Assembly (NCBI GenBank): GCA_027490575.1
Contig: JAIXXV010000032.1
Coordinates: forward strand, 13,211-77,210
Reading direction: 5' to 3'
DNA length: 64,000 bases
DNA from: a bacterium
GTDB taxonomy: Bacteria > Patescibacteriota > Minisyncoccia > Phycocordibacterales > CAIZLB01
Positions 1-51,127 of the stretch are shown piece after piece. The position numbers were made by a program, and so were the translations under genes. The notes under the pieces were generated by a model. It saw nothing but the letters and a program-made list of their open reading frames with translations, ran no database searches and was not told the origin of the DNA. Each line of letters opens with the position of its first letter. The first letter of the stretch is position 1.

Positions 1-189
1 TGGCACCTTATCTCCATAAGTGAAATCTTCACCGCCGTTCATATCCGGGTGCTCTAGAGTCTGAAGCACAATATCTGCACCAAACTTATTTATCTTAAAA
101 GGTGAATTTTTAGATGGAGGATTGATAGCTATAGTCAAATCTCCATATTGAATCTTAAAACATTCGTGTCCAAAGTATGTAACAATCAT
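1..189 (-). CDS. MBL-fold metal-dependent hydrolase, N-terminal fragment (runs off window)
   Basis: Minus-strand translation from ATG at 187-189 gives MIVTYFGHECFKIQYGDLTIAINPP..., typical of the UPF0173/beta-lactamase-fold hydrolase N-terminus; truncated by the window edge. Confidence 0.45.
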   Translation of the reverse strand, partial: MIVTYFGHECFKIQYGDLTIAINPPSKNSPFKINKFGADIVLQTLEHPDMNGGEDFTYGDKVP

Positions 190-290
190 ATGCCGACTAT
201 TTTACATTAGTTTTGAAAATGGTGCTAGTTGATGCGTATTTACGCATTCTAGATAAACATACTCAAACTGTAAATCAACTGTACATCAAC

Positions 291-318
291 TGTACATCCC
301 GCCATTTTTATGTATAAT
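291..318 (+). promoter_or_regulatory. putative sigma70-type promoter upstream of rpsA (-35 TGTACA, -10 TATAAT)
   Basis: TATAAT at 313-318 preceded by TG; TGTACA 16 bp upstream; about 95-nt leader to rpsA ATG; overlaps tandem 11-bp direct repeat ATCAACTGTAC x2 (274-295). Confidence 0.4.
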
Positions 319-413
319 ACTGGGACAATCTTTTATTAACCGAAAGTACGTGTAATCCCTGCTGTGCCATTCAGTCAATCCATGCAGAAGCTCGTATTTT
401 CAAAAACTAACAA

Positions 414-1541
414 ATGACAAATACAAAAGATTTGGAAAATGTGTCAGTTTCTAAAGAAGAAATGGCTCAGGCTCCCGTAAACCCAACGTACATGGGTAAA
501 CTATTAGCAGATACAGCCAATCCACCTAGTGTTGGAGACCTTGTAGAGGGTCCGGTTATCGCCATCGACAAAAAAGGTGTATTCATAGACCTGAAGCCGT
601 ATGGTACTGGTATTATCTTCGGAAGAGAGTACATCAACGCCAGAGATATCATCAGAAAGGTAAATGTTGGTGACAATATTGCCGCTAAGGTTGTAGAAAT
701 CAGTAATACTGATGGATACGTAGAACTTTCACTTAAAGAAGCTAAACAAGCCCTTATTTGGAATGAGGCTGAAGACGCTATCAAGTCAAAAGTCACATTT
801 GATATACCTGTACTTGAAGCAAACAAAGGAGGTCTACTACTATCATGGCAAGGTATTCACGGATTCCTTCCAGCATCTCAACTTAAAGCTGATCACTACC
901 CACGTGTAGAAGATGGTGATAAAGACAGAATCCTAGAAGAACTAAAAAAGCTTGTAGGCCAAAAGCTTTCAGTTACTATCATTGGTGCATCTCCAAAAGA
1001 AGGTAAACTTATCTTCTCTGAGAAAAACCCTGAGACTAAGGAGAAAGAACAAGCAGCTGGTAAGTACTCTGTAGGTGATGAAGTTGAAGGTACTGTTACA
1101 GGTGCAGTTGATTTCGGAGTCTTTATCAAGATAGAAGAAGGTCTAGAAGGACTTGTTCACATATCTGAGATAGACTGGGCACTTGTTGAGGACCCTAGAC
1201 TTCTATACAAAGTCGGAGACAAAGTTAAAGTTAAGGTTATAGAAATCAAAGACGGCAAGATATCTCTATCTATCAAGGCTCTAAAGGAAAATCCTTGGAA
1301 AGAAGCTGAGAAGAAATACAAGAAAGACGATATCGTTAAAGGTGTTGTTATCAAATTCAACAAGCACGGTGCACTTGCTAGTATCGAAGAAGGTGTTGCA
1401 GGACTTGTACACGTTTCAGAATTCGGTAGTGATATCAAACTTAGAGAAAAACTAGAGCTAGGAAAGATTTACACATTCAAGATCAATCTATTTGATGCAA
1501 AAGATCAAAAGATGGCGCTTGGGTTTGTCGACAAAAAATAA
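414..1541 (+). CDS. rpsA: 30S ribosomal protein S1 (four S1 domains, short form)
   Basis: 375 aa; repeated S1 OB-fold modules (GxV.G.V..i.dfGvFv.l..g.eGLvHiSEi); plausible promoter upstream. Confidence 0.9.
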   Translation: MTNTKDLENVSVSKEEMAQAPVNPTYMGKLLADTANPPSVGDLVEGPVIAIDKKGVFIDLKPYGTGIIFGREYINARDIIRKVNVGDNIAAKVVEISNTDGYVELSLKEAKQALIWNEAEDAIKSKVTFDIPVLEANKGGLLLSWQGIHGFLPASQLKADHYPRVEDGDKDRILEELKKLVGQKLSVTIIGASPKEGKLIFSEKNPETKEKEQAAGKYSVGDEVEGTVTGAVDFGVFIKIEEGLEGLVHISEIDWALVEDPRLLYKVGDKVKVKVIEIKDGKISLSIKALKENPWKEAEKKYKKDDIVKGVVIKFNKHGALASIEEGVAGLVHVSEFGSDIKLREKLELGKIYTFKINLFDAKDQKMALGFVDKK

Positions 1542-1567
1542 AAATCTTCGCAACTATTTTTAGAGAA

Positions 1568-1600
1568 CAAAACCTCGAAACAATCGGGGTTTTTGTTTTT
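1568..1600 (+). terminator. rho-independent terminator after rpsA
   Basis: Hairpin AAAACCTCG...CGGGGTTTT followed by TTTTGTTTTT. Confidence 0.5.
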
Positions 1601-1664
1601 CCTAATACTAGTAAATGCTATTTGATGGCCATATTTAAGCCCTATCTTGAGCCACATTTTGTAT

Positions 1665-1693
1665 TTGACAAGCCATATAGTGCTGGTATAATA
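1665..1693 (+). promoter_or_regulatory. near-consensus sigma70 promoter TTGACA-17-TATAAT
   Basis: TTGACA at 1665-1670, 17-bp spacer, TATAAT at 1688-1693; drives a roughly 340-nt unit ending at the terminator at 2001-2040. Confidence 0.55.
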
Positions 1694-2000
1694 CTATTCC
1701 AGTACAAGGCGCAAGTTTTGTACAACCTCAACAATTTAGAAGGTGTTCATGTGATCACCTTAGCACCCGAATTGAAAGGCGGGTTTGAACATTATGGCAG
1801 CCATGTTTAACGACGGAAGACCTATTCAAAACGTCTTCCAAGTAAGTCAGAGAGCATTGCTTTCGGAGGAAAGCCTACTTCTTGAAGAAATGAGAGAAGC
1901 ATCACTTGCTGATTTCCATCCAGTTCACGCTGGATTCGCTGGTGCCCTCGCACTAATTCTGGAGGTAGGTGCCGACGACAACGAACTCTGAGCCTCAAAA

Positions 2001-2040
2001 GCTCCCAATAGCCGACTCTCACCCTCGTGGTGGCAGTCGG
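2001..2040 (+). terminator. strong rho-independent terminator
   Basis: AGCCGACT...AGTCGGCT hairpin followed by TTTTTTTA. Confidence 0.65.
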
Positions 2041-2087
2041 CTTTTTTTATTTCCCAAAGATTGCTACTGGTCAGACTCACACTTAAA

Positions 2088-2699
2088 CTAACCCTGATTA
2101 AACTCACCCATTGCCTTTTCCCTACCTTCACTTATACACATGTAAATTGCTTCTGCGACTTTTTTTGATATTTTCTTTATCTCATCAAACTCAGCTGGCT
2201 TGAACTCACCTACTATAAAATCCATGATTTTATCTGAACCTGGCTTTTTGGGTTTACCAGAAGGAGTTGTTGGACATATGCCGACTTTTATTCTGGCAAA
2301 TGCTTCTGTCTTTATAGCTTTTTTTATTGACTCTATACCCCTGTGCCCACCTGATCCTCGATTGAAAAGTATTTTTATCTTTCCAATGGGCATATCTAGG
2401 TCGTCTTGCACGACTATCAGCTTTTCAGCTTTTTTTGCACTTGTCACCAAGGGTGCGACACTGGCACCAGACTTGTTCATATAGGTCTCAGGTAAAACGA
2501 GAGTGACTTTTTCTACACCTGTTTTTGCGTTTTCTGAATCAATCTCATCTTGAGAAATCATTGCCGAATACTTAGAACTTTTTACAAACTCAGGAAACTT
2601 ATACTTTTTTGCAAATTGTTCAACTCCAATACGACCAGCATTATGTCTGGTATTTTTGTACTCTTCACCTGGGTTTCCTAGTCCAACGACAATATACAT
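2088..2699 (-). CDS. pth: peptidyl-tRNA hydrolase
   Basis: N-terminal VVGLGNPG...NTRHNAG motif and overall Pth family length/profile. Confidence 0.9.
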   Translation of the reverse strand: MYIVVGLGNPGEEYKNTRHNAGRIGVEQFAKKYKFPEFVKSSKYSAMISQDEIDSENAKTGVEKVTLVLPETYMNKSGASVAPLVTSAKKAEKLIVVQDDLDMPIGKIKILFNRGSGGHRGIESIKKAIKTEAFARIKVGICPTTPSGKPKKPGSDKIMDFIVGEFKPAEFDEIKKISKKVAEAIYMCISEGREKAMGEFNQG

Positions 2700-2751
2700 A
2701 TTATTTTATTTATATTTTGATTATAACATAAAAGTGTAGTATCATGCTGAT

Positions 2752-3303
2752 ATGAGTTTTTTATCAAGACAATTTAAAGAGTGGCGTTATACGATTTTGC
2801 TTTTCATTGTATTGATATCTATCCGACTATTTGTTGCAGAGCCATTTCTAGTTTATGGAAGTTCTATGGATCCCACGTTTACATCCGGTGATTATCTGGT
2901 GGTTGATGAGATAAGTTACAAGCTAGAAAATCCAAAGAGAGGTGAAGTCATAGTTTTCATACCACCATATGACAACACCAGACATTTTATAAAAAGGATT
3001 ATAGGGCTTCCAGGTGAGACAGTTATAGTTGATGGTTCAGTTATAAAGATTATAAATGACCAGAATCCAAAAGGATTTATCTTGGATGAGCCATATGTAA
3101 AGTTCCAGAGCAATAGAAAATCCACAGTAAAACTCAGCGAAAATGAGTATTATGTGGCTGGTGACAACAGAAATGTCAGCTACGACTCTAGAAGCTGGGG
3201 TGCCTTGCCATCTGAGAATATTACTGGTAGAGCATTATTGAGATTGTATCCTTTCCAAAGTATAGGTATACTCCCTGGAAATGAGCACATTACGGCTGAA
3301 TAA
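2752..3303 (+). CDS. lepB: signal peptidase I
   Basis: N-terminal TM, GSSMDPT (catalytic Ser box), KRIIGLPGE (Lys box), GDNRNVSYDSRSWG box. Confidence 0.85.
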   Translation: MSFLSRQFKEWRYTILLFIVLISIRLFVAEPFLVYGSSMDPTFTSGDYLVVDEISYKLENPKRGEVIVFIPPYDNTRHFIKRIIGLPGETVIVDGSVIKIINDQNPKGFILDEPYVKFQSNRKSTVKLSENEYYVAGDNRNVSYDSRSWGALPSENITGRALLRLYPFQSIGILPGNEHITAE

Positions 3304-3432
3304 GGGCCAAATCCTGCATAATAGCCTTACATAGGCCGCAGACAGCTCAATGCAGGGCCAAGGGTCCAGATTTAGACGCAATATCGGACACAGCATATAG
3401 CTGGATTTAGCATAAATAAATCAAACAAAAAA

Positions 3433-4713
3433 ATGGCTGAGAAGAAAACAAAAAGCAAAACTGACCAAAAAAACATTTTGACTGATAAAAACCCAATTTT
3501 CAAAGGACATGAACATGCAAGCCACACTGCAAAACACTATGGCTTTCACCCATTTGCAGGACTACAGGTAGAAAAACAAGACCTGGTAAAAGCTAAAAAC
3601 TTCAAAGATAGTAAGAAAACCGCCTTCAACGACAAGGACTCTCTTTTGAGTTTTGATAAGTTACTTGAAGAGAAGATTGCCATCATGAGAATGTATGTCG
3701 AGAAACAAATGGCTGACATTCATCAACCACCGATGATTTCATACAGTGGTCCTCTTACTGGAAACCCTCATGCATCTGATAAAACTAAACTCAAGACATT
3801 TAACCTTGATATAGTTGCCAATCCAAAAAGTATTGCCGATGCACTAGTTATCGAAACAGCTTTTGTTATTTTGAAAGAGCAGATTGATGCTGATTCTGAG
3901 TTAATGATTGAGATAAACTCTATTGGAGATAAAGAATCATTCCAAAAATTCACTAAAGACTTGATAGTATTTTCAAAAAAGAGAGCGCCGGATATGCCGA
4001 CTAGCATCAGGCAAGCATTTAAGAAAGACCCTTTTACTTTGTACTCATGTAAAGACGAAGAGTGTCTAGCTATACAAGAAGAGGCTCCAAAGCCCATGAG
4101 CTACCTTTCAGAAGAAAGTCGTGATCATTTTAGAGAAGTACTTGAGTATATTGAGTCATTGTCTATCCCCTACACCATCAATCATTCACTTATAGGCAGT
4201 AGACACTATTCTTCTGGGACAATATTTCAAATCGTGAAAGTTCCGAAAGCAGGCAAAGGTCCAAAAGATGGCAAGATAAAAAGAGAGGTATTGGCTATTG
4301 GCGAAAGATACAACAATGTATCAAAGAAAGCTTGGAACAAAAAAGAAGTTCCTGCTGTTGGTGTAACAATGCTAATAGATGAAAAAGCTATAAAGAATCT
4401 ACCACCAAAAAAGATTATCATTGAAGAGGCAAAGTTTTACTTTATACAGCTTGGTTATGATGCAAAGCTAAAGAGTCTTTCTATTATAGAAATGCTTCGT
4501 GTTGCAAATATCCCTGTTCATCAATCTCTATCTAGAGATAAGATAACGAGCCAGCTTGCTGCCGCGGAGAAACTAAACGTACCGTATATCATCTTGCTTG
4601 GCCAAAAGGAGGCTATAGAAAACAGTGTAACTATTAGACATGTCCAGACTAGAGTACAGGAAACAGTAAAACTCCATGAACTAGTGGATTATATAAAGAA
4701 ATTATTAAAATAA
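3433..4713 (+). CDS. histidyl-tRNA synthetase-like protein (class II HisRS/HisZ family) with retained anticodon-binding domain; catalytic motifs appear degenerate
   Basis: Strong similarity to the HisRS core (IEINSIG, SEESRDHFREVLEYIESLSIPYTINHSLIGSRHYS vs E. coli [42 protein letters not shown]); C-terminal HisRS-type anticodon-binding domain; motif-2 region reads GPLTGNPHASDKTKLKTF instead of GPMFRHERPQKGRYRQF; no RPEGTA loop. Confidence 0.6.
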   Translation: MAEKKTKSKTDQKNILTDKNPIFKGHEHASHTAKHYGFHPFAGLQVEKQDLVKAKNFKDSKKTAFNDKDSLLSFDKLLEEKIAIMRMYVEKQMADIHQPPMISYSGPLTGNPHASDKTKLKTFNLDIVANPKSIADALVIETAFVILKEQIDADSELMIEINSIGDKESFQKFTKDLIVFSKKRAPDMPTSIRQAFKKDPFTLYSCKDEECLAIQEEAPKPMSYLSEESRDHFREVLEYIESLSIPYTINHSLIGSRHYSSGTIFQIVKVPKAGKGPKDGKIKREVLAIGERYNNVSKKAWNKKEVPAVGVTMLIDEKAIKNLPPKKIIIEEAKFYFIQLGYDAKLKSLSIIEMLRVANIPVHQSLSRDKITSQLAAAEKLNVPYIILLGQKEAIENSVTIRHVQTRVQETVKLHELVDYIKKLLK

Positions 4714-4833
4714 TATTAAGAAAGGCTCAAATATACCTAAATATATCTTTACGGCGCATTAGGATTGCTAGAATTGGTAATAATTCTATATGATTTGCAA
4801 GAATTAGCCATTCATGATATATTTTGAAACCAT

Positions 4834-5076
4834 ATGATAAACGTTAATATCCAGAAGAACCCAACAGAAAGTGCTGCTTCTATTTTGAGAAGATTTACTA
4901 AGAAAGTACAAGAGTCAGGTGTACTTAACAGAGTTAGATCTATCAAATACGCAGAGAGAAACCTTTCATACTACAAAAAGAAAAAAGGTGCTCTTGAAAA
5001 GCTTAAAAGACAACTTGAAAGAGAGAACTTGATCAAGCTTGGAAAACTCACAGTTGTTACAAGAAAAGGTAGATAG
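4834..5076 (+). CDS. rpsU: 30S ribosomal protein S21
   Basis: 80 aa basic protein; LRRFTKKVQESGVL...KYAER matches the S21 core (RRFKR..EK.G.L.E.RRR..YEKP). Confidence 0.85.
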   Translation: MINVNIQKNPTESAASILRRFTKKVQESGVLNRVRSIKYAERNLSYYKKKKGALEKLKRQLERENLIKLGKLTVVTRKGR

Positions 5077-5164
5077 TTGGTCACTAGATAACTAAGTTCA
5101 CTTATCTAGTATAAGTGTCTTCAAGCCTTAGTGCTGTCTAAAAGTCATAGTCAAAGTTACAATT

Positions 5165-5569
5165 ATGAATACTTTATACACACAAGACACATTCGAAATA
5201 TCTACAACCGTAAAAAAGGCGCCTAAGATTGATGGCGCTCTTTTTTATAAGTTAAAAAACCATGTTTTAGGTAAGAACTATGACCTGAGTTTTGTTTTTA
5301 TCGGACAAAAGCGTATGAGACACCTGAATAACACTCATAGACGAAAAGATTATGCGACTGATATTTTGAGTTTTACTATTGATAATGAGAACGGAGAAAT
5401 ATTTATTTATCCAAAAAAAGCAGAACAAAAATCAAAAGATTTTGATAAAACTTTTAAAGAATATTTACCTTTTTTATTTATCCACGGGTTAATGCATTTG
5501 AAAGGATTCGAACATGGTAGTATTATGGATAGTGAAGAAGCTCGAGTTAGAAGCTTGTTCAAAGTTTAA
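5165..5569 (+). CDS. ybeY: rRNA maturation endoribonuclease YbeY
   Basis: HGLMHLKGFEH zinc-binding HxxxHxxxxxH motif at the C-terminus; 134 aa. Confidence 0.85.
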   Translation: MNTLYTQDTFEISTTVKKAPKIDGALFYKLKNHVLGKNYDLSFVFIGQKRMRHLNNTHRRKDYATDILSFTIDNENGEIFIYPKKAEQKSKDFDKTFKEYLPFLFIHGLMHLKGFEHGSIMDSEEARVRSLFKV

Positions 5570-5593
5570 ATAATCTTTTCAAGAAATATACAA

Positions 5594-6781
5594 ATGGCAT
5601 TAGGTCGAAATACAGCTGTCGGCATTGACGTAGGAACTCATCAAGTAAAAGTGATCGTCGGTGAATCTGACCCTAAAAATGAAAAATCTATGCCTCGAAT
5701 CATTGGCTCTGGTATCGCAGAATCAAAAGGTATTCGTCATGGATTTGTAACAAACGTTGATGATATTGCAAAGAGTATCAGGACAGCGGTATCTATGGCC
5801 GAGAAATCATGTGGTTCCCCTATCAAAAAAGCCTATATATCAGTAGGTGGTGTAGGACTAGGTGCCATCATATCTTTTGGAAGTGTAGCAACCACCAAAG
5901 CAGACTCAGAGATCACAGAGCTAGATATCAAACGTGCCATAGAGGAGAGCGAAAAGGAGCTACCAAACACATACATACAAAACAGAAAGATTATACATAC
6001 AGTACCGCTCGAGTTTAGAGTAGACGGAAAAAGGATACTGGGCAGACCTGTTGGCCTAAAGGGCGTCAAACTAGAAGTGAAAGTTTTATATATCACATGT
6101 CTATCGCACCACCTCAACGACTTACTATCTGCATTTGACGAAGCAGACATAGAAGTTCTAGACGTCACAGCTTCACCTATAGCAGCAAGTCTTGTCACCC
6201 TAAGTAAAACTCAAAAGATTGCAGGTTGTATACTAGCTAACATTGGCGCTGAGACTACATCTATCATAGTATTTGAAAACAACACACCAGTTTCTATGGA
6301 GGTATTTCAGATAGGTTCAAATGATATAACCAACGACTTGGCATTAGGTCTCAAGATATCAATAGAAGAAGCCGAGGATATAAAGCGAGGTACAGGACGC
6401 ATTGGAGAATTTTCAAAAAGAAAGATTGAGGAAATCATCGTCGCTCGTCTATCAGACATATTTGACCTAATAGAAGATCACCTAAAACGTATAGATAGAA
6501 ACGGCCTACTTCCAGCAGGTATCATCATGACAGGTGGAGGATCAAATATCCACAGTATCGAAGAGTTAGCAAAAGTAACACTTAGACTACCTTCAAAACA
6601 ATCAAGGCTGCGCTTCGAAGGAAACATAAAAAACATGCAAAATGACACTGAATGGGCGGTTTGCTATGGTTTAGCCCTTTTGAACCTTACAGACACTCCA
6701 GGAGACGATTTTAAGCCTTTAAACGAGTTTAAAAAGGTCAGTAGATTCATGATTAGATTCTTTAAGAAGTTTCTACCTTAG
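5594..6781 (+). CDS. ftsA: cell division protein FtsA
   Basis: Actin-like ATPase fold (GIDVGT...; IMTGGGS) and the ftsA-ftsZ gene order. Confidence 0.85.
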   Translation: MALGRNTAVGIDVGTHQVKVIVGESDPKNEKSMPRIIGSGIAESKGIRHGFVTNVDDIAKSIRTAVSMAEKSCGSPIKKAYISVGGVGLGAIISFGSVATTKADSEITELDIKRAIEESEKELPNTYIQNRKIIHTVPLEFRVDGKRILGRPVGLKGVKLEVKVLYITCLSHHLNDLLSAFDEADIEVLDVTASPIAASLVTLSKTQKIAGCILANIGAETTSIIVFENNTPVSMEVFQIGSNDITNDLALGLKISIEEAEDIKRGTGRIGEFSKRKIEEIIVARLSDIFDLIEDHLKRIDRNGLLPAGIIMTGGGSNIHSIEELAKVTLRLPSKQSRLRFEGNIKNMQNDTEWAVCYGLALLNLTDTPGDDFKPLNEFKKVSRFMIRFFKKFLP

Positions 6782-28448: not shown

Positions 28449-30569
28449 ATGAACAATAAAAGAATAGGTACAATATCCCTAAACTCCAAGGGAAAAGGCT
28501 TCGTCGAGATAGAGGGTCAGGAGCTAGATATACCGGTAGAGCCTAGGGACATATCTACAGCGCTTCCAAGCGACACAGTTGAGATAGAGCTATACAGCGG
28601 TTTTAGAGGCGCTGAATACGGCAAAGTACTTCGGGTGATAGAGCGCAAGAAAACCCAGTACGTAGGGACGATCATAAAGGGTGAAAATACGTCTTGGTAC
28701 AACCAGGACCCTGAAAGCTATGCCGACCTAAAAGATGTTTTGGTTTTGGCACCAGATGACAAGAGGGCTAATATAATCATTAAGATAGATCAAGATGGTT
28801 TCGAAGACGAATCTCATGACAAAGACATCGCGCTTACGGGTGCTGGCGCAGTCATAAACAATGTCACCAAGCACGAGATACGTGAGAGCTTTAAAGCTAT
28901 AGCAAAAATAGACCTTGAGACATGGTCAGATAGAGATGGTCGAGTTCCTCATGGATACATCACTAGGGTTATTGGAGAAAAAGGCGAAAACAATGCCGAA
29001 ATGGAGTCTATAGTACTAGAAAGAGGTTTTGATACGACTTTCTCATCAGAGGTTATCAGAGAGGCCGAGGAAGCTGCCAAGGACTATAGTTCTCTATCCC
29101 CTTCTGCAGAAGAGCTGTCTTCGAGAAGAGACATGCGAGGAGTATTCACATGTACTATCGACCCATTTGATGCAAAAGACTTCGACGATGCTCTTTCCAT
29201 AAGAGTTCTTTCTGACTCAGAGAAAAAGGCTTGGTCTGACGAGACGAAGAGTTATAGTGGTACGGACTTACCTGAGGCTCATTTTGAAATAGGTATACAC
29301 ATCGCTGACGTTGCACACTATGTACGTCCCGGGACTGCACTTGATATGGAAGCAAGACGTAGAGCTTTTTCTGTGTACTTAGTAGATAGAACTATCCCTA
29401 TGCTTCCATCAGTACTTTCAAATGGTATGTGTAGTCTAAACCCGCATGAGGATAGATTCGCATTTTCTACTATTTTCCTGATGACAAAAGACGGGCGTAT
29501 TTTGGACAAATGGTTTGGGCGGACAATCATTTACTCAGATAGACGTTTTTCATACGAAGAGGCCCAAGATGTTTTAAATGGCAAACTAGAAAGTGAATAT
29601 GCACAGCAGATAAAAGATTTTGACCATATTGCAAAGATAATGCAAAAGCAAAGAAAAGATAAAGGTTCTATCGACTTTGAGACAACTGAGATAAAGTTCA
29701 AACTAGACGAGCAAGGTCGCCCTATAGCTGTATACAAAAAAGAAAGACTTGATGCTCACAGACTTGTAGAAGAATACATGCTCTTGGCCAACAGAGAAGT
29801 TGCCGAGTATATCTCAAAGAAAAATAAAGAAATAAAAACTGAAAAAGCTGGAGTATACCGTGTCCACAATTCACCAGACTTTGAAAGACTTACTGACCTT
29901 GGTATCTTTGTGAGAGCACTAGGATTTGAATTTCATCCAACCAAAAACATTACCCCTAAGGACGTACAGAAGCTTCTCAGTGACGTTGAAGGTTCGCCTG
30001 CCGAAGCCGTCATCAAAGTAGCAACTCTACGCTCTATGGCAAAGGCCACTTATGCTACTTCCAACACTGGTCACTTTGGACTAGCTTTTGATTTCTACAC
30101 CCAGTTCACTTCACCTATCAGACGTTACCCTGACTTGATGGTTCACCGTATTCTTGCCCTGCTACTAGAAGGTAAAGTTGTACCGCACCAGATGGCTATA
30201 ACACTTGAAAAGATATGTCTCGACTCATCAAAACGTGAAGTAGAGGCCGCCGATGCAGAACGCGCATCTGTAAAGTACAAACAAGTAGAGTTTATGATGA
30301 ATAAGATTGGTCAGACTTTCGAAGCAACAGTTTCTGGTATCTCTGATTGGGGTATGTATGTTGAGGAGCCTGAGTCAAAAGCAGAAGGTCTCATAAGACT
30401 TAAGGACCTAAAACCTGACGACTTCTACAGCGTAGATCAAAAGAACTACAAGATCATTGGTCAAAATACTAAAAAGGAATTCAATATTGGTGACAAGATA
30501 ACTGTAAAATTAGTTAGTGCTGACTTGGATGCGAAGATGTTGGATTTTCAGGTTGTGACTCAAAGCTAA
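28449..30569 (+). CDS. rnr: ribonuclease R (RNB-family 3'-5' exoribonuclease)
   Basis: N-terminal OB folds, RNB catalytic domain (TIDPFDAKDFDDALS), C-terminal S1 domain. Confidence 0.9.
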   Translation: MNNKRIGTISLNSKGKGFVEIEGQELDIPVEPRDISTALPSDTVEIELYSGFRGAEYGKVLRVIERKKTQYVGTIIKGENTSWYNQDPESYADLKDVLVLAPDDKRANIIIKIDQDGFEDESHDKDIALTGAGAVINNVTKHEIRESFKAIAKIDLETWSDRDGRVPHGYITRVIGEKGENNAEMESIVLERGFDTTFSSEVIREAEEAAKDYSSLSPSAEELSSRRDMRGVFTCTIDPFDAKDFDDALSIRVLSDSEKKAWSDETKSYSGTDLPEAHFEIGIHIADVAHYVRPGTALDMEARRRAFSVYLVDRTIPMLPSVLSNGMCSLNPHEDRFAFSTIFLMTKDGRILDKWFGRTIIYSDRRFSYEEAQDVLNGKLESEYAQQIKDFDHIAKIMQKQRKDKGSIDFETTEIKFKLDEQGRPIAVYKKERLDAHRLVEEYMLLANREVAEYISKKNKEIKTEKAGVYRVHNSPDFERLTDLGIFVRALGFEFHPTKNITPKDVQKLLSDVEGSPAEAVIKVATLRSMAKATYATSNTGHFGLAFDFYTQFTSPIRRYPDLMVHRILALLLEGKVVPHQMAITLEKICLDSSKREVEAADAERASVKYKQVEFMMNKIGQTFEATVSGISDWGMYVEEPESKAEGLIRLKDLKPDDFYSVDQKNYKIIGQNTKKEFNIGDKITVKLVSADLDAKMLDFQVVTQS

Positions 30570-49726: not shown

Positions 49727-49873
49727 ATTATTTATATGTATTTTATATGAGCTATGTTTATACAAGTATTTTAAACAAGCGTTTATAAGAGTATTATAGC
49801 CCAACCTTTACCTGTATTATAGCCCGAATCCCAAAGATTGACAATATATCTATATATGATATAATTTATTTAT

Positions 49874-51127
49874 ATGAAAAACTTTATTAAAATCATTATC
49901 ATAGTAGCAATACTGGTTATACTGGTATTTCTAAGTGTTGGTATAGTGCGTATTGTACCTAGAGTAGTGTCTTCCCTAGCCTCAGCTACGGTGTCACTTG
50001 GCTCATTTTTTACTGGTGGTTCAGACAGCAATGCCACTTCAACTTCAAGTAGTGGTAACAGTACTAACAATAATGGTACTCAAACATCTACATCTACAAG
50101 TGGAAATGGTTTTGTAGTGATTAATGGAACATCAACAAATTCTAGCAATGAAGATGATAGATCATTGGTCAATATACTTAGACCAAACAATACTTCAGGG
50201 CAACCTACTCAAGGTTCAAACAATTCAAACACTTCGAATGTAAAGAACTCTGTAAACAATTCTGCAAACGCAGGTACAGGCAACGTCTCTTATGTTGCAA
50301 ATACATGTACTAACGGTCGTGTATCTGATCTTGCCGTGAGAGTGCTTTCTCGTGGTGTTATGAACAAGGCTACAGGTCAATACATAGAGACCAACTCATT
50401 TACATCAGCTGACACTGTCATCGTAAAGTTTATAGCTGAAAACAGAGGAAGCTGTCCTACGGGCACATGGAGTCTAAGAGTAGACATGCCATCACAAAAC
50501 ACAGCTGATAGAGTTAGAAATATAGTAAACGTAGCTAGTCTTCCTGCTGGTTCTACAGTAACAGGTGAAGTTAACTTCACTACACCTGTAGTTGGAAATT
50601 CAAATGTAACTCTAACAGTAACTGATAACTCAGGTAGAGATTCAAATCTTTCAAACAATACAGTACCGACTTCGATTACGACTATTGCTACTAACACAGG
50701 TACAAATCCTGGAACACCTATCACAGGTGATGGAAGACCTGACCTGGCAGTGCGAATACTTAGAATGGGTACACTTGGATTCAATAACCAATTCGTCCCT
50801 ATCGCAAATACTTCATCTAACTTCGGCGGTAACTTCAGAGTTGGTGAAAGAGTTGCAGTACAATTTGAAGTCATTAACCAAGGACAAACACCTACTGGTG
50901 CATGGACATGGAGAGCTGACTCTGTAGCATTTCAAAATGGAAGCTATACAAACAATCAGTATGAAAATTCAATCCCTGCAGGAGGCAGACTTGTATACAC
51001 TATTGGATTTGATAGTCAGACTATAGGTACAAACAATATCTCTGTCACAGCAGATCATTTGAACCAAGTAAATGAGTTCAATGAATCAAACAATATCGCT
51101 GGTGTTAGTTTCAATGTTGGATACTAA
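49874..51127 (+). CDS. membrane-anchored surface protein with two CARDB-like domains
   Basis: N-terminal TM; Ser/Thr/Asn-rich linker; two modules starting (R)PDLAVR and ending E.NE.NN, the CARDB hallmark. Confidence 0.55.
   Translation: MKNFIKIIIIVAILVILVFLSVGIVRIVPRVVSSLASATVSLGSFFTGGSDSNATSTSSSGNSTNNNGTQTSTSTSGNGFVVINGTSTNSSNEDDRSLVNILRPNNTSGQPTQGSNNSNTSNVKNSVNNSANAGTGNVSYVANTCTNGRVSDLAVRVLSRGVMNKATGQYIETNSFTSADTVIVKFIAENRGSCPTGTWSLRVDMPSQNTADRVRNIVNVASLPAGSTVTGEVNFTTPVVGNSNVTLTVTDNSGRDSNLSNNTVPTSITTIATNTGTNPGTPITGDGRPDLAVRILRMGTLGFNNQFVPIANTSSNFGGNFRVGERVAVQFEVINQGQTPTGAWTWRADSVAFQNGSYTNNQYENSIPAGGRLVYTIGFDSQTIGTNNISVTADHLNQVNEFNESNNIAGVSFNVGY

Follow-up and report, generated by a model that had tools for sequence, protein, structure and literature searches.

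Dual-function sRNAs, in which the transcript carries a small-protein gene as well, include SgrS/SgrT, RNAIII/hld and SR1/SR1P, and among small acidic mimic proteins are the anti-restriction/DNA-mimic proteins Ocr and ArdA. Taxonomically restricted orphan genes are described as a general phenomenon in prokaryotes in a published account (PMC11293555). In this study, we report the analysis of a small transcription unit located between rpsA and pth in a 64,000-nt stretch of DNA (the window) belonging to a CPR (Paceibacteria/Parcubacteria) genome assembled from a metagenome; the identical sequence is also present in GCA_027484805.1 and in several Logan assemblies, and the contig occurs in assemblies of SRR30952586-SRR30952593. 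The unit is probably (at about 0.68, as judged from sequence) a monocistronic mRNA for a species-restricted, acidic orphan protein of 65 residues, a reading favoured by the codon usage, codon-position composition, synonymous bias and intact frame of its open reading frame (ORF) and by the protein genes found at the same promoter in relatives.

The species-level genomes nearest to the window carry the labels Paceibacterota, Taylorbacteria or Parcubacteria. The genes rpsA (414-1541, + strand; four S1 domains in Pfam) and pth (2088-2699, - strand; peptidyl-tRNA hydrolase, Pfam Pept_tRNA_hydro) are convergent, and the 546-bp gap between them holds the promoter-terminator unit. An intrinsic terminator of rpsA, consisting of a 10-pair stem and a T run (dG -13.5, z = -4.1), was located at 1565-1598 (+) and separates rpsA from the unit, which is thus not a read-through 3' UTR of rpsA. 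In the same region, a 426-aa gene at 3433-4713 (+) has HGTP_anticodon (residues 348-423) as its sole Pfam domain; the class-II aminoacyl-tRNA synthetase core was not matched in it at E up to 1, and the gene may encode a synthetase, HisRS-like or related, that has diverged strongly, or else a paralogue. The GC-richer 130-nt spacer upstream of this gene (3304-3432) gave no Rfam match.

The promoter of the unit consists of the -35 hexamer TTGACA at 1665-1670 (+), unchanged in the second copy described below, and an extended -10 element, TGgTATAAT, at 1684-1692 (+; TG at 1684-1685, TATAAT at 1687-1692), and matches the consensus at 12/12 positions. It had been described in the first-pass annotation as TTGACA-17-TATAAT, and it is indeed perfect and real, but its spacer is 16 nt and not 17; in the second copy the spacer is 18 nt. 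Among the 16 promoter-like sites detected in 1-6000 it was the best and the sole 12/12 site, and the 64 kb contain two instances of the perfect arrangement TTGACA-N15-19-TATAAT, where 0.2 would be expected. The other perfect site (TTGACA-N16-TATAAT, 49838-49865) lies 8-9 nt upstream of the ATG of a gene at 49874, and its position directly before this ATG indicates that real promoters in this organism use this consensus. The -10 form (T)AGTGnTAnAAT is also present at the equivalent promoter of five relatives (L006-L010).

The unit is closed by an intrinsic terminator at 2010-2048 (+), an interrupted 13-bp hairpin with an outer stem of 8 bp (2010-2017/2035-2042), an inner 5-bp helix and T7 at 2042-2048 (dG -20.2 kcal/mol, z = -5.2), which was missed by a simple terminator scanner because of its long interrupted stem. 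Promoter and terminator enclose about 350 nt. The strong terminator claimed at the first pass was thereby borne out and placed, as was the GC-richer 3' half of the unit, with a GC content of 0.475-0.495 in 1801-2100 vs approximately 0.37 nearby; the latter is accounted for by the first-position G/C of a protein rich in Ala, Glu, Asp, Gly, Val and Leu, together with the terminator. Judged by these signals, the unit is real and, by design, independently expressed.

A 5' UTR of about 95 nt, an unusual leader length for this genome, is predicted at 1699-1793 (+), the transcription start at approximately 1699-1701 being placed from the -10 element. Three hairpins were predicted in it, H1 at 1702-1723 with the GNRA loop GCAA, H2 at 1740-1761 and H3 at 1765-1784 (dG -25.6, z = -2.3). 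The segment 1785-1793 is able to pair with 1803-1811 across both AUGs (1794 and 1803) in the predicted fold. The whole transcript folds better than its shuffles (z = -3.96), the minimum free energy structure being a string of separate domains, with no helix in the unit fold joining the 5' and 3' ends.

Conservation of the unit was assessed in 80 loci of related species (L005-L084; rpsA 64-88% identical). The convergent rpsA/pth pair is kept in 66/80 of these loci, with a gap ranging from 12 to 3140 bp, and the contents of this gap are mostly unrelated among the 66 genomes. Searches of the 80 loci with 1640-2060, using blastn (word size 7) and nhmmer, returned self matches only.

Rfam 15 (4227 models) was searched at the gathering score over the whole window and, under permissive filtering with an E cut-off of 10, over 1500-2150 (651 nt). 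At the gathering score only two tRNAs were found in the window, and ARAGORN identified only tRNA-Val and tRNA-Glu there, with no tmRNA. The permissive search of 1500-2150 gave only noise matches on the rpsA terminator and no RNase P, tmRNA, 6S or SRP RNA. The first-pass annotation had suggested RNase P RNA or tmRNA from the size of the unit, together with an Rfam scan for RNase P, tmRNA, 6S and SRP RNA; as no family was found in the unit by that scan and no tmRNA by ARAGORN, this identity was not upheld.

It is extremely improbable that the unit is a divergent housekeeping RNA of like size (RNase P RNA, tmRNA, 6S RNA or SRP RNA), an idea that draws on the length of about 350 nt, on the unit having its own promoter and terminator, and on the string GGAGGAAAGCC, said to resemble the 5' strand of the RNase P P4 helix. 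This string is present, but at 1865-1875, one base off the position first given, and it supplies the 3' side of a hairpin of 6 bp within the ORF (GCUUUC/GAAAGC; 5' arm at 1859-1864). RNase P RNA (RF00010/RF00011) was rejected, there being no covariance-model match, no P1 closing helix and no P4 3' strand; the pairing expected of P4, in which a 5' strand of the GGAAAGUCC type meets a conserved partner close to the 3' end, was not found in the unit. tmRNA was rejected since neither ARAGORN nor Rfam detected one and the unit has no tRNA-like end, and 6S RNA and SRP RNA were rejected since they gave no Rfam match and the fold consists of separate domains, not of a closed rod. Moreover, a housekeeping RNA would be conserved, and the absence of the element from this site in the 66 related genomes, and from all 80 related loci, counts against it.

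An ORF of 65 codons plus stop, MAAMFNDGRPIQNVFQVSQRALLSEESLLLEEMREASLADFHPVHAGFAGALALILEVGADDNEL, begins with ATG at 1794 and ends at 1991 (+), and is called as a gene in all assemblies. The first-pass annotation had offered, beside a non-coding RNA, a 68-aa acidic protein read from TTG (1785-1991); of the two, the protein has the stronger support, but its start is more likely ATG 1794, which is used by the gene callers in every assembly and gives 65 aa. Shuffling of the transcript produced an ATG ORF of 65 codons or more in 4.7% of cases. A further ORF of 61 aa (1625-1810), called by gene finders, was rejected as a gene since it spans the promoter and is not called in the second copy, where its start region (1600-1660) is diverged and carries a 1-nt deletion.

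Codon usage was scored with a table for which the 38 window ORFs with a length of 200 aa or more served as training set. The log-likelihood ratio (LLR) of the ORF was 0.394 bits/codon, compared with 0.267±0.114 for 65-codon windows of real genes and -0.75±0.32 for off-frame windows of real genes, none of which scored as high, while the other five frames of the ORF itself scored from -0.29 to -0.86. Under an iid no-stop null (-0.14±0.10), 0/5000 sequences reached the score of the ORF, which lies 5 sd out. When the 190 stretches without a stop that span 65 codons or more and lie outside the training genes are ordered by LLR, the ORF ranks second, and its high-scoring neighbours in this ranking are evident small genes, such as an S21-like ORF at 4834; an antisense ORF in the window scores 0.343, so that the test has false positives. 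The GC content by codon position is 0.68/0.35/0.39 in the ORF vs 0.50/0.375/0.349 in genes.

No Shine-Dalgarno sequence was found 5-15 nt upstream of ATG 1794, and an SD-like motif precedes only 7/38 of the long genes in the window. Many of these long genes have a TATAAT-like box a few bases upstream of the ATG, indicating leaderless or very short-leader mRNAs. A published survey detected the anti-SD motif in only 48% of Parcubacteria (PMC9297842). As a Shine-Dalgarno sequence is absent from most genes here, small ORFs are not to be dismissed for its absence.

The sole other copy of the unit in all collections searched was located on a 1.1-kb metagenome contig (L088, the same as L089; JACCDR011446196.1). 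Together with the absence of a match in the 80 related loci, this agrees with the unit being lineage-specific, as first proposed; the second half of that proposal, an sRNA, is retained as a minority possibility. The L088 protein is a 97% variant carrying S37A and N63S. The two ORFs differ by six substitutions, of which four are synonymous at third positions and two are conservative replacements. With 43.3 synonymous and 148.7 non-synonymous sites (Nei-Gojobori), this corresponds to a one-sided Fisher p of 0.023 and a dN/dS of about 0.15, a value limited by its origin in six substitutions of one pair and in a protein that has no homologue for deeper comparison. In the other two frames the synonymous/non-synonymous counts are 0/6 and 1/5. 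The frame is intact in L088, and the sole indel near the ORF is one base, just 3' of the stop. The synonymous excess lends weak to moderate support to coding.

Between the -35 hexamer and the terminator the unit is 96-100% identical in the two copies, and the spacers on either side are 56-76% identical. Fewer positions have changed in the 5' UTR (1/95) than in the ORF (6/198), and the one substitution in the 5' UTR converts the loop GCAA to GUAA, so that the GNRA loop is kept. Conservation from promoter to terminator was considered as proof of constraint and rejected, as rpsA 1317-1516 is equally similar. Aligned with window 1017-2111, L088 presents a mosaic of identities, with 74-88% in rpsA 1067-1316, 96-100% in rpsA 1317-1516, 56-76% in 1517-1666, 96-100% in the unit and approximately 70% beyond 2055, which suggests strain recombination or a chimeric metagenome contig. 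Given this mosaic, the near-identity of the unit in two copies is no proof of constraint.

The same comparison bears on the possibility, which we consider unlikely, that the unit is a lineage-specific sRNA, approximately 350 nt long, or serves as a dual-function RNA with a secondary ORF, its domains being the three 5' hairpins and a multi-branched domain of 145 nt at 1847-1991. The folding of the whole unit, the almost invariant 5' region with its kept GNRA tetraloop and the lack of a homologue of the ORF are all compatible with such an RNA, as is the folding of the ORF segment (z -2.75 to -3.1), although ordinary coding segments reach such values in the tail of their distribution: 198-nt gene segments have a mean z of -0.38 (sd 1.22), and 6/70 of them reach -2.5 or lower. 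Placed on the predicted RNA fold, the 12 differences from L088 (11 substitutions and a 1-nt deletion) comprise eight at unpaired positions, two that keep a pair and two that break one, whereas the 11 substitutions alone comprise seven unpaired, two one-sided pair-preserving and two pair-breaking changes. No compensatory change was present among the 12 differences, and two of the four changes in predicted helices break pairs; the L088 substitutions thus give no support to the predicted fold. Of the conservation and covariation by which the first-pass annotation had proposed to judge the unit, the former gave no match in the 80 related loci and the latter no compensatory change in L088. Further against an RNA as the main product, no Rfam family was matched, and it is the frame of the ORF that codon usage, GC by codon position and synonymous bias single out.

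The encoded protein of 65 residues has a pI of 4.24 and a net charge of -8, and lacks Lys, Cys, Thr, Trp and Tyr; among 65-residue windows of the genome's proteins, 6.6% are without Lys and 3% are this acidic. With three Arg and no Lys, its predicted tryptic peptides include PIQNVFQVSQR, ALLSEESLLLEEMR and a C-terminal one of 31 residues. AlphaFold, run on the single sequence, gave one long generic helix (pLDDT 72), which carries little information. No Pfam family matched, the best being UPF0758_N at E = 0.15, under the cut-off, and PHROGs, NCBIfam and PDB gave zero matches. A k-mer/HMMER search of 5.8 billion clustered proteins recovered only the protein itself and its 97% variant, an exhaustive HMMER search of 1.84 billion representatives only itself, and a scan of metagenome contigs only the already known 97% copy. 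Viral contigs and phage and plasmid DNA gave no match, and no paralogue was found within the window. A type I toxin-antitoxin system did not fit either, the protein being acidic with a longest hydrophobic stretch of about 14 residues, and no minus-strand promoter-like site for an antisense RNA being present in 1700-2100.

In the five closest relatives (L006-L010), the same site holds a promoter of the form TTGACA ... AGTGnTAnAAT, a long leader, an ORF and a terminator. Their leader contains a 21-bp hairpin, in which nine pairs show compensatory changes among the five genomes, followed by an A/C-rich stretch; the hairpin lies at 5361-5432 in L006, 5415-5482 in L007, 5403-5470 in L008, 5866-5946 in L009 and 5202-5266 in L010, and may act in the leader to stabilise the mRNA or to regulate it. 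Rfam contains no match to this hairpin, and a covariance model built from it (R1) finds it at this locus in L006-L010 only. As an element common to these genomes and the window it was rejected, the best cmsearch hit in the window being at 29335 (E = 5.4), with none in 1699-1793. L007 and L008 share 70% similarity over 214 nt, ending at the ORF start.

The ORFs behind the hairpin are 60, 47, 69, 238 and 231 aa long in L006-L010, respectively. The 60-aa ORF of L006 matches the N-terminal part of the 231-aa ORF of L010 (PIADSRQKQGTLRGCPDEE vs PIIIARARRGFPQHCPDEE, E = 4e-4), and homology between the ORFs of L009 and L010 is weak (E = 0.003), that of L010 being itself an orphan. In L012 the site (5126-5744) carries a type IV pilin-like ORF and in L011 a miniprotein with two transmembrane segments (2-TM) together with a 175-aa ORF. 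Leaders followed by protein genes are found at the same promoter in relatives, pilin-like in L012, 2-TM in L011 and of 212-238 aa in L009/L010. The cargo ORFs of the relatives exceed their hosts in GC3 and have codon scores close to zero, suggesting that this DNA is foreign or evolves very fast, whereas the ORF in the window is fully host-like.

Only L006 (gap at 5126-5859) aligned significantly with the window (local z = 5.0). Promoter, last codons, stop and terminator are all included in this alignment, as is TTTTTTTATTTCC beyond the terminator; the last codons read ..DDNEL* in the window and ..PDEEL* in L006, with an in-frame 3-nt gap. No protein-level similarity of the window ORF to those of L006, L009 and L010 was found by BLASTP or MAFFT. 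A likeness between the N-termini in the window (MAAMF...NV) and L010 (MANPF...NNV) was rejected, since L010 probably starts downstream of this stretch and neither MAFFT nor BLASTP supported the likeness.

The alignment with L006 raises the possibility that the unit is a functionless transcribed relic, in which a longer fast-evolving gene of the kind seen in L009/L010 has been truncated after '...D-x-E-L' behind a strong promoter. The shared 3' end, the match of the short L006 ORF to part of the longer one in L010, the weak L009/L010 homology and the rapid turnover of contents at the site speak for this reading. We nevertheless regard a relic as quite improbable, since the window ORF has host-like codon usage, above that of the average gene, where the cargo of the relatives looks foreign, since it has no protein similarity to the ORFs of L006, L009 or L010, since both copies show synonymous bias and an intact frame, and since the consensus promoter and the terminator are kept.

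At the same site, L013 carries (5180-5512) a promoter-terminator unit of 329 nt in which no ORF is credible (z = -4.9) and a helix closes the 5' and 3' ends; an Rfam search with an E cut-off of 10 gave no match, and the unit is a candidate structured sRNA. The unit of L006 also folds strongly (z = -5.6), and the codon score of its ORF is about zero. These two RNA-like units are the main reason for keeping a non-coding or dual-function reading of the window unit, although the window unit shows neither sequence nor shared-fold relation to the L013 unit.

Taken more widely, the rpsA-pth gap in this Paceibacteria clade may serve as an 'expression slot', in which the strong promoter is orthologous and is kept, in several genomes together with a structured leader, while the cargo turns over, the cargo of the window being a protein born or remodelled in the species lineage or a new structured or dual-function RNA of 350 nt; this model is put forward tentatively, with low confidence.

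For the unit read as an mRNA, the following course of expression can be proposed. Transcription would start near 1699-1701 from the sigma-70 extended -10 promoter, and the 95-nt, three-hairpin 5' UTR would precede an AUG that, like most genes here, is without a Shine-Dalgarno sequence. The partial occlusion of this AUG by local pairing may limit or regulate initiation. The product would be a cytoplasmic, Lys-free, strongly acidic and largely helical protein. Its position in a hypervariable slot, alongside pilin-like, small membrane and fast-evolving orphan cargo in relatives, would fit a strain-specific accessory role, and its most likely action may be not catalysis but the binding of a basic partner, for which it would serve as a helical, acidic mimic or as a modulator. 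Both points are speculative; a partner-binding modulator or mimic is taken as a working guess from the composition of the protein and its hypervariable accessory locus.

The main value of this analysis is in annotation, as a CPR unit of the size of RNase P RNA or tmRNA is most likely a strongly expressed small-protein gene, by prediction, and not a missing housekeeping RNA. The most reusable by-product is the rpsA-pth site itself, a hot spot at which the promoter is kept and the contents differ among close relatives, and which could hold host-interaction or defence-related accessory genes.

Compared with known systems, the unit resembles bacterial RNase P RNA and tmRNA in transcript length only, and differs from them in having no tRNA-like domain, no P1/P4 architecture and no conservation in relatives. 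With the dual-function sRNAs it shares a stand-alone arrangement, a length of a few hundred nucleotides, structure and a small ORF that takes up part of the transcript, but it has no Rfam or sequence relation to SgrS/SgrT, RNAIII/hld or SR1/SR1P. The small size, net charge of -8, pI of 4.2, predicted helical nature and fast-evolving accessory locus of its protein recall mimics of the Ocr/ArdA type, a likeness that serves as a lead only, the 65-aa protein being, unlike these, unmatched in PHROGs, Pfam, NCBIfam, PDB, phage and plasmid collections. The closest resemblance is to species-specific orphan small-protein genes, with which it has in common a short ORF, no homologue outside one species, a variable position and its own expression signals. 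It departs from typical members of this group in the unusual clarity of its signals, with a 12/12 promoter and a strong terminator, and in its fully host-adapted codon usage, which argue against a recent foreign or spurious origin of the ORF. As a species-restricted small-protein gene, the unit is thus an ordinary kind of object with tidy signals.
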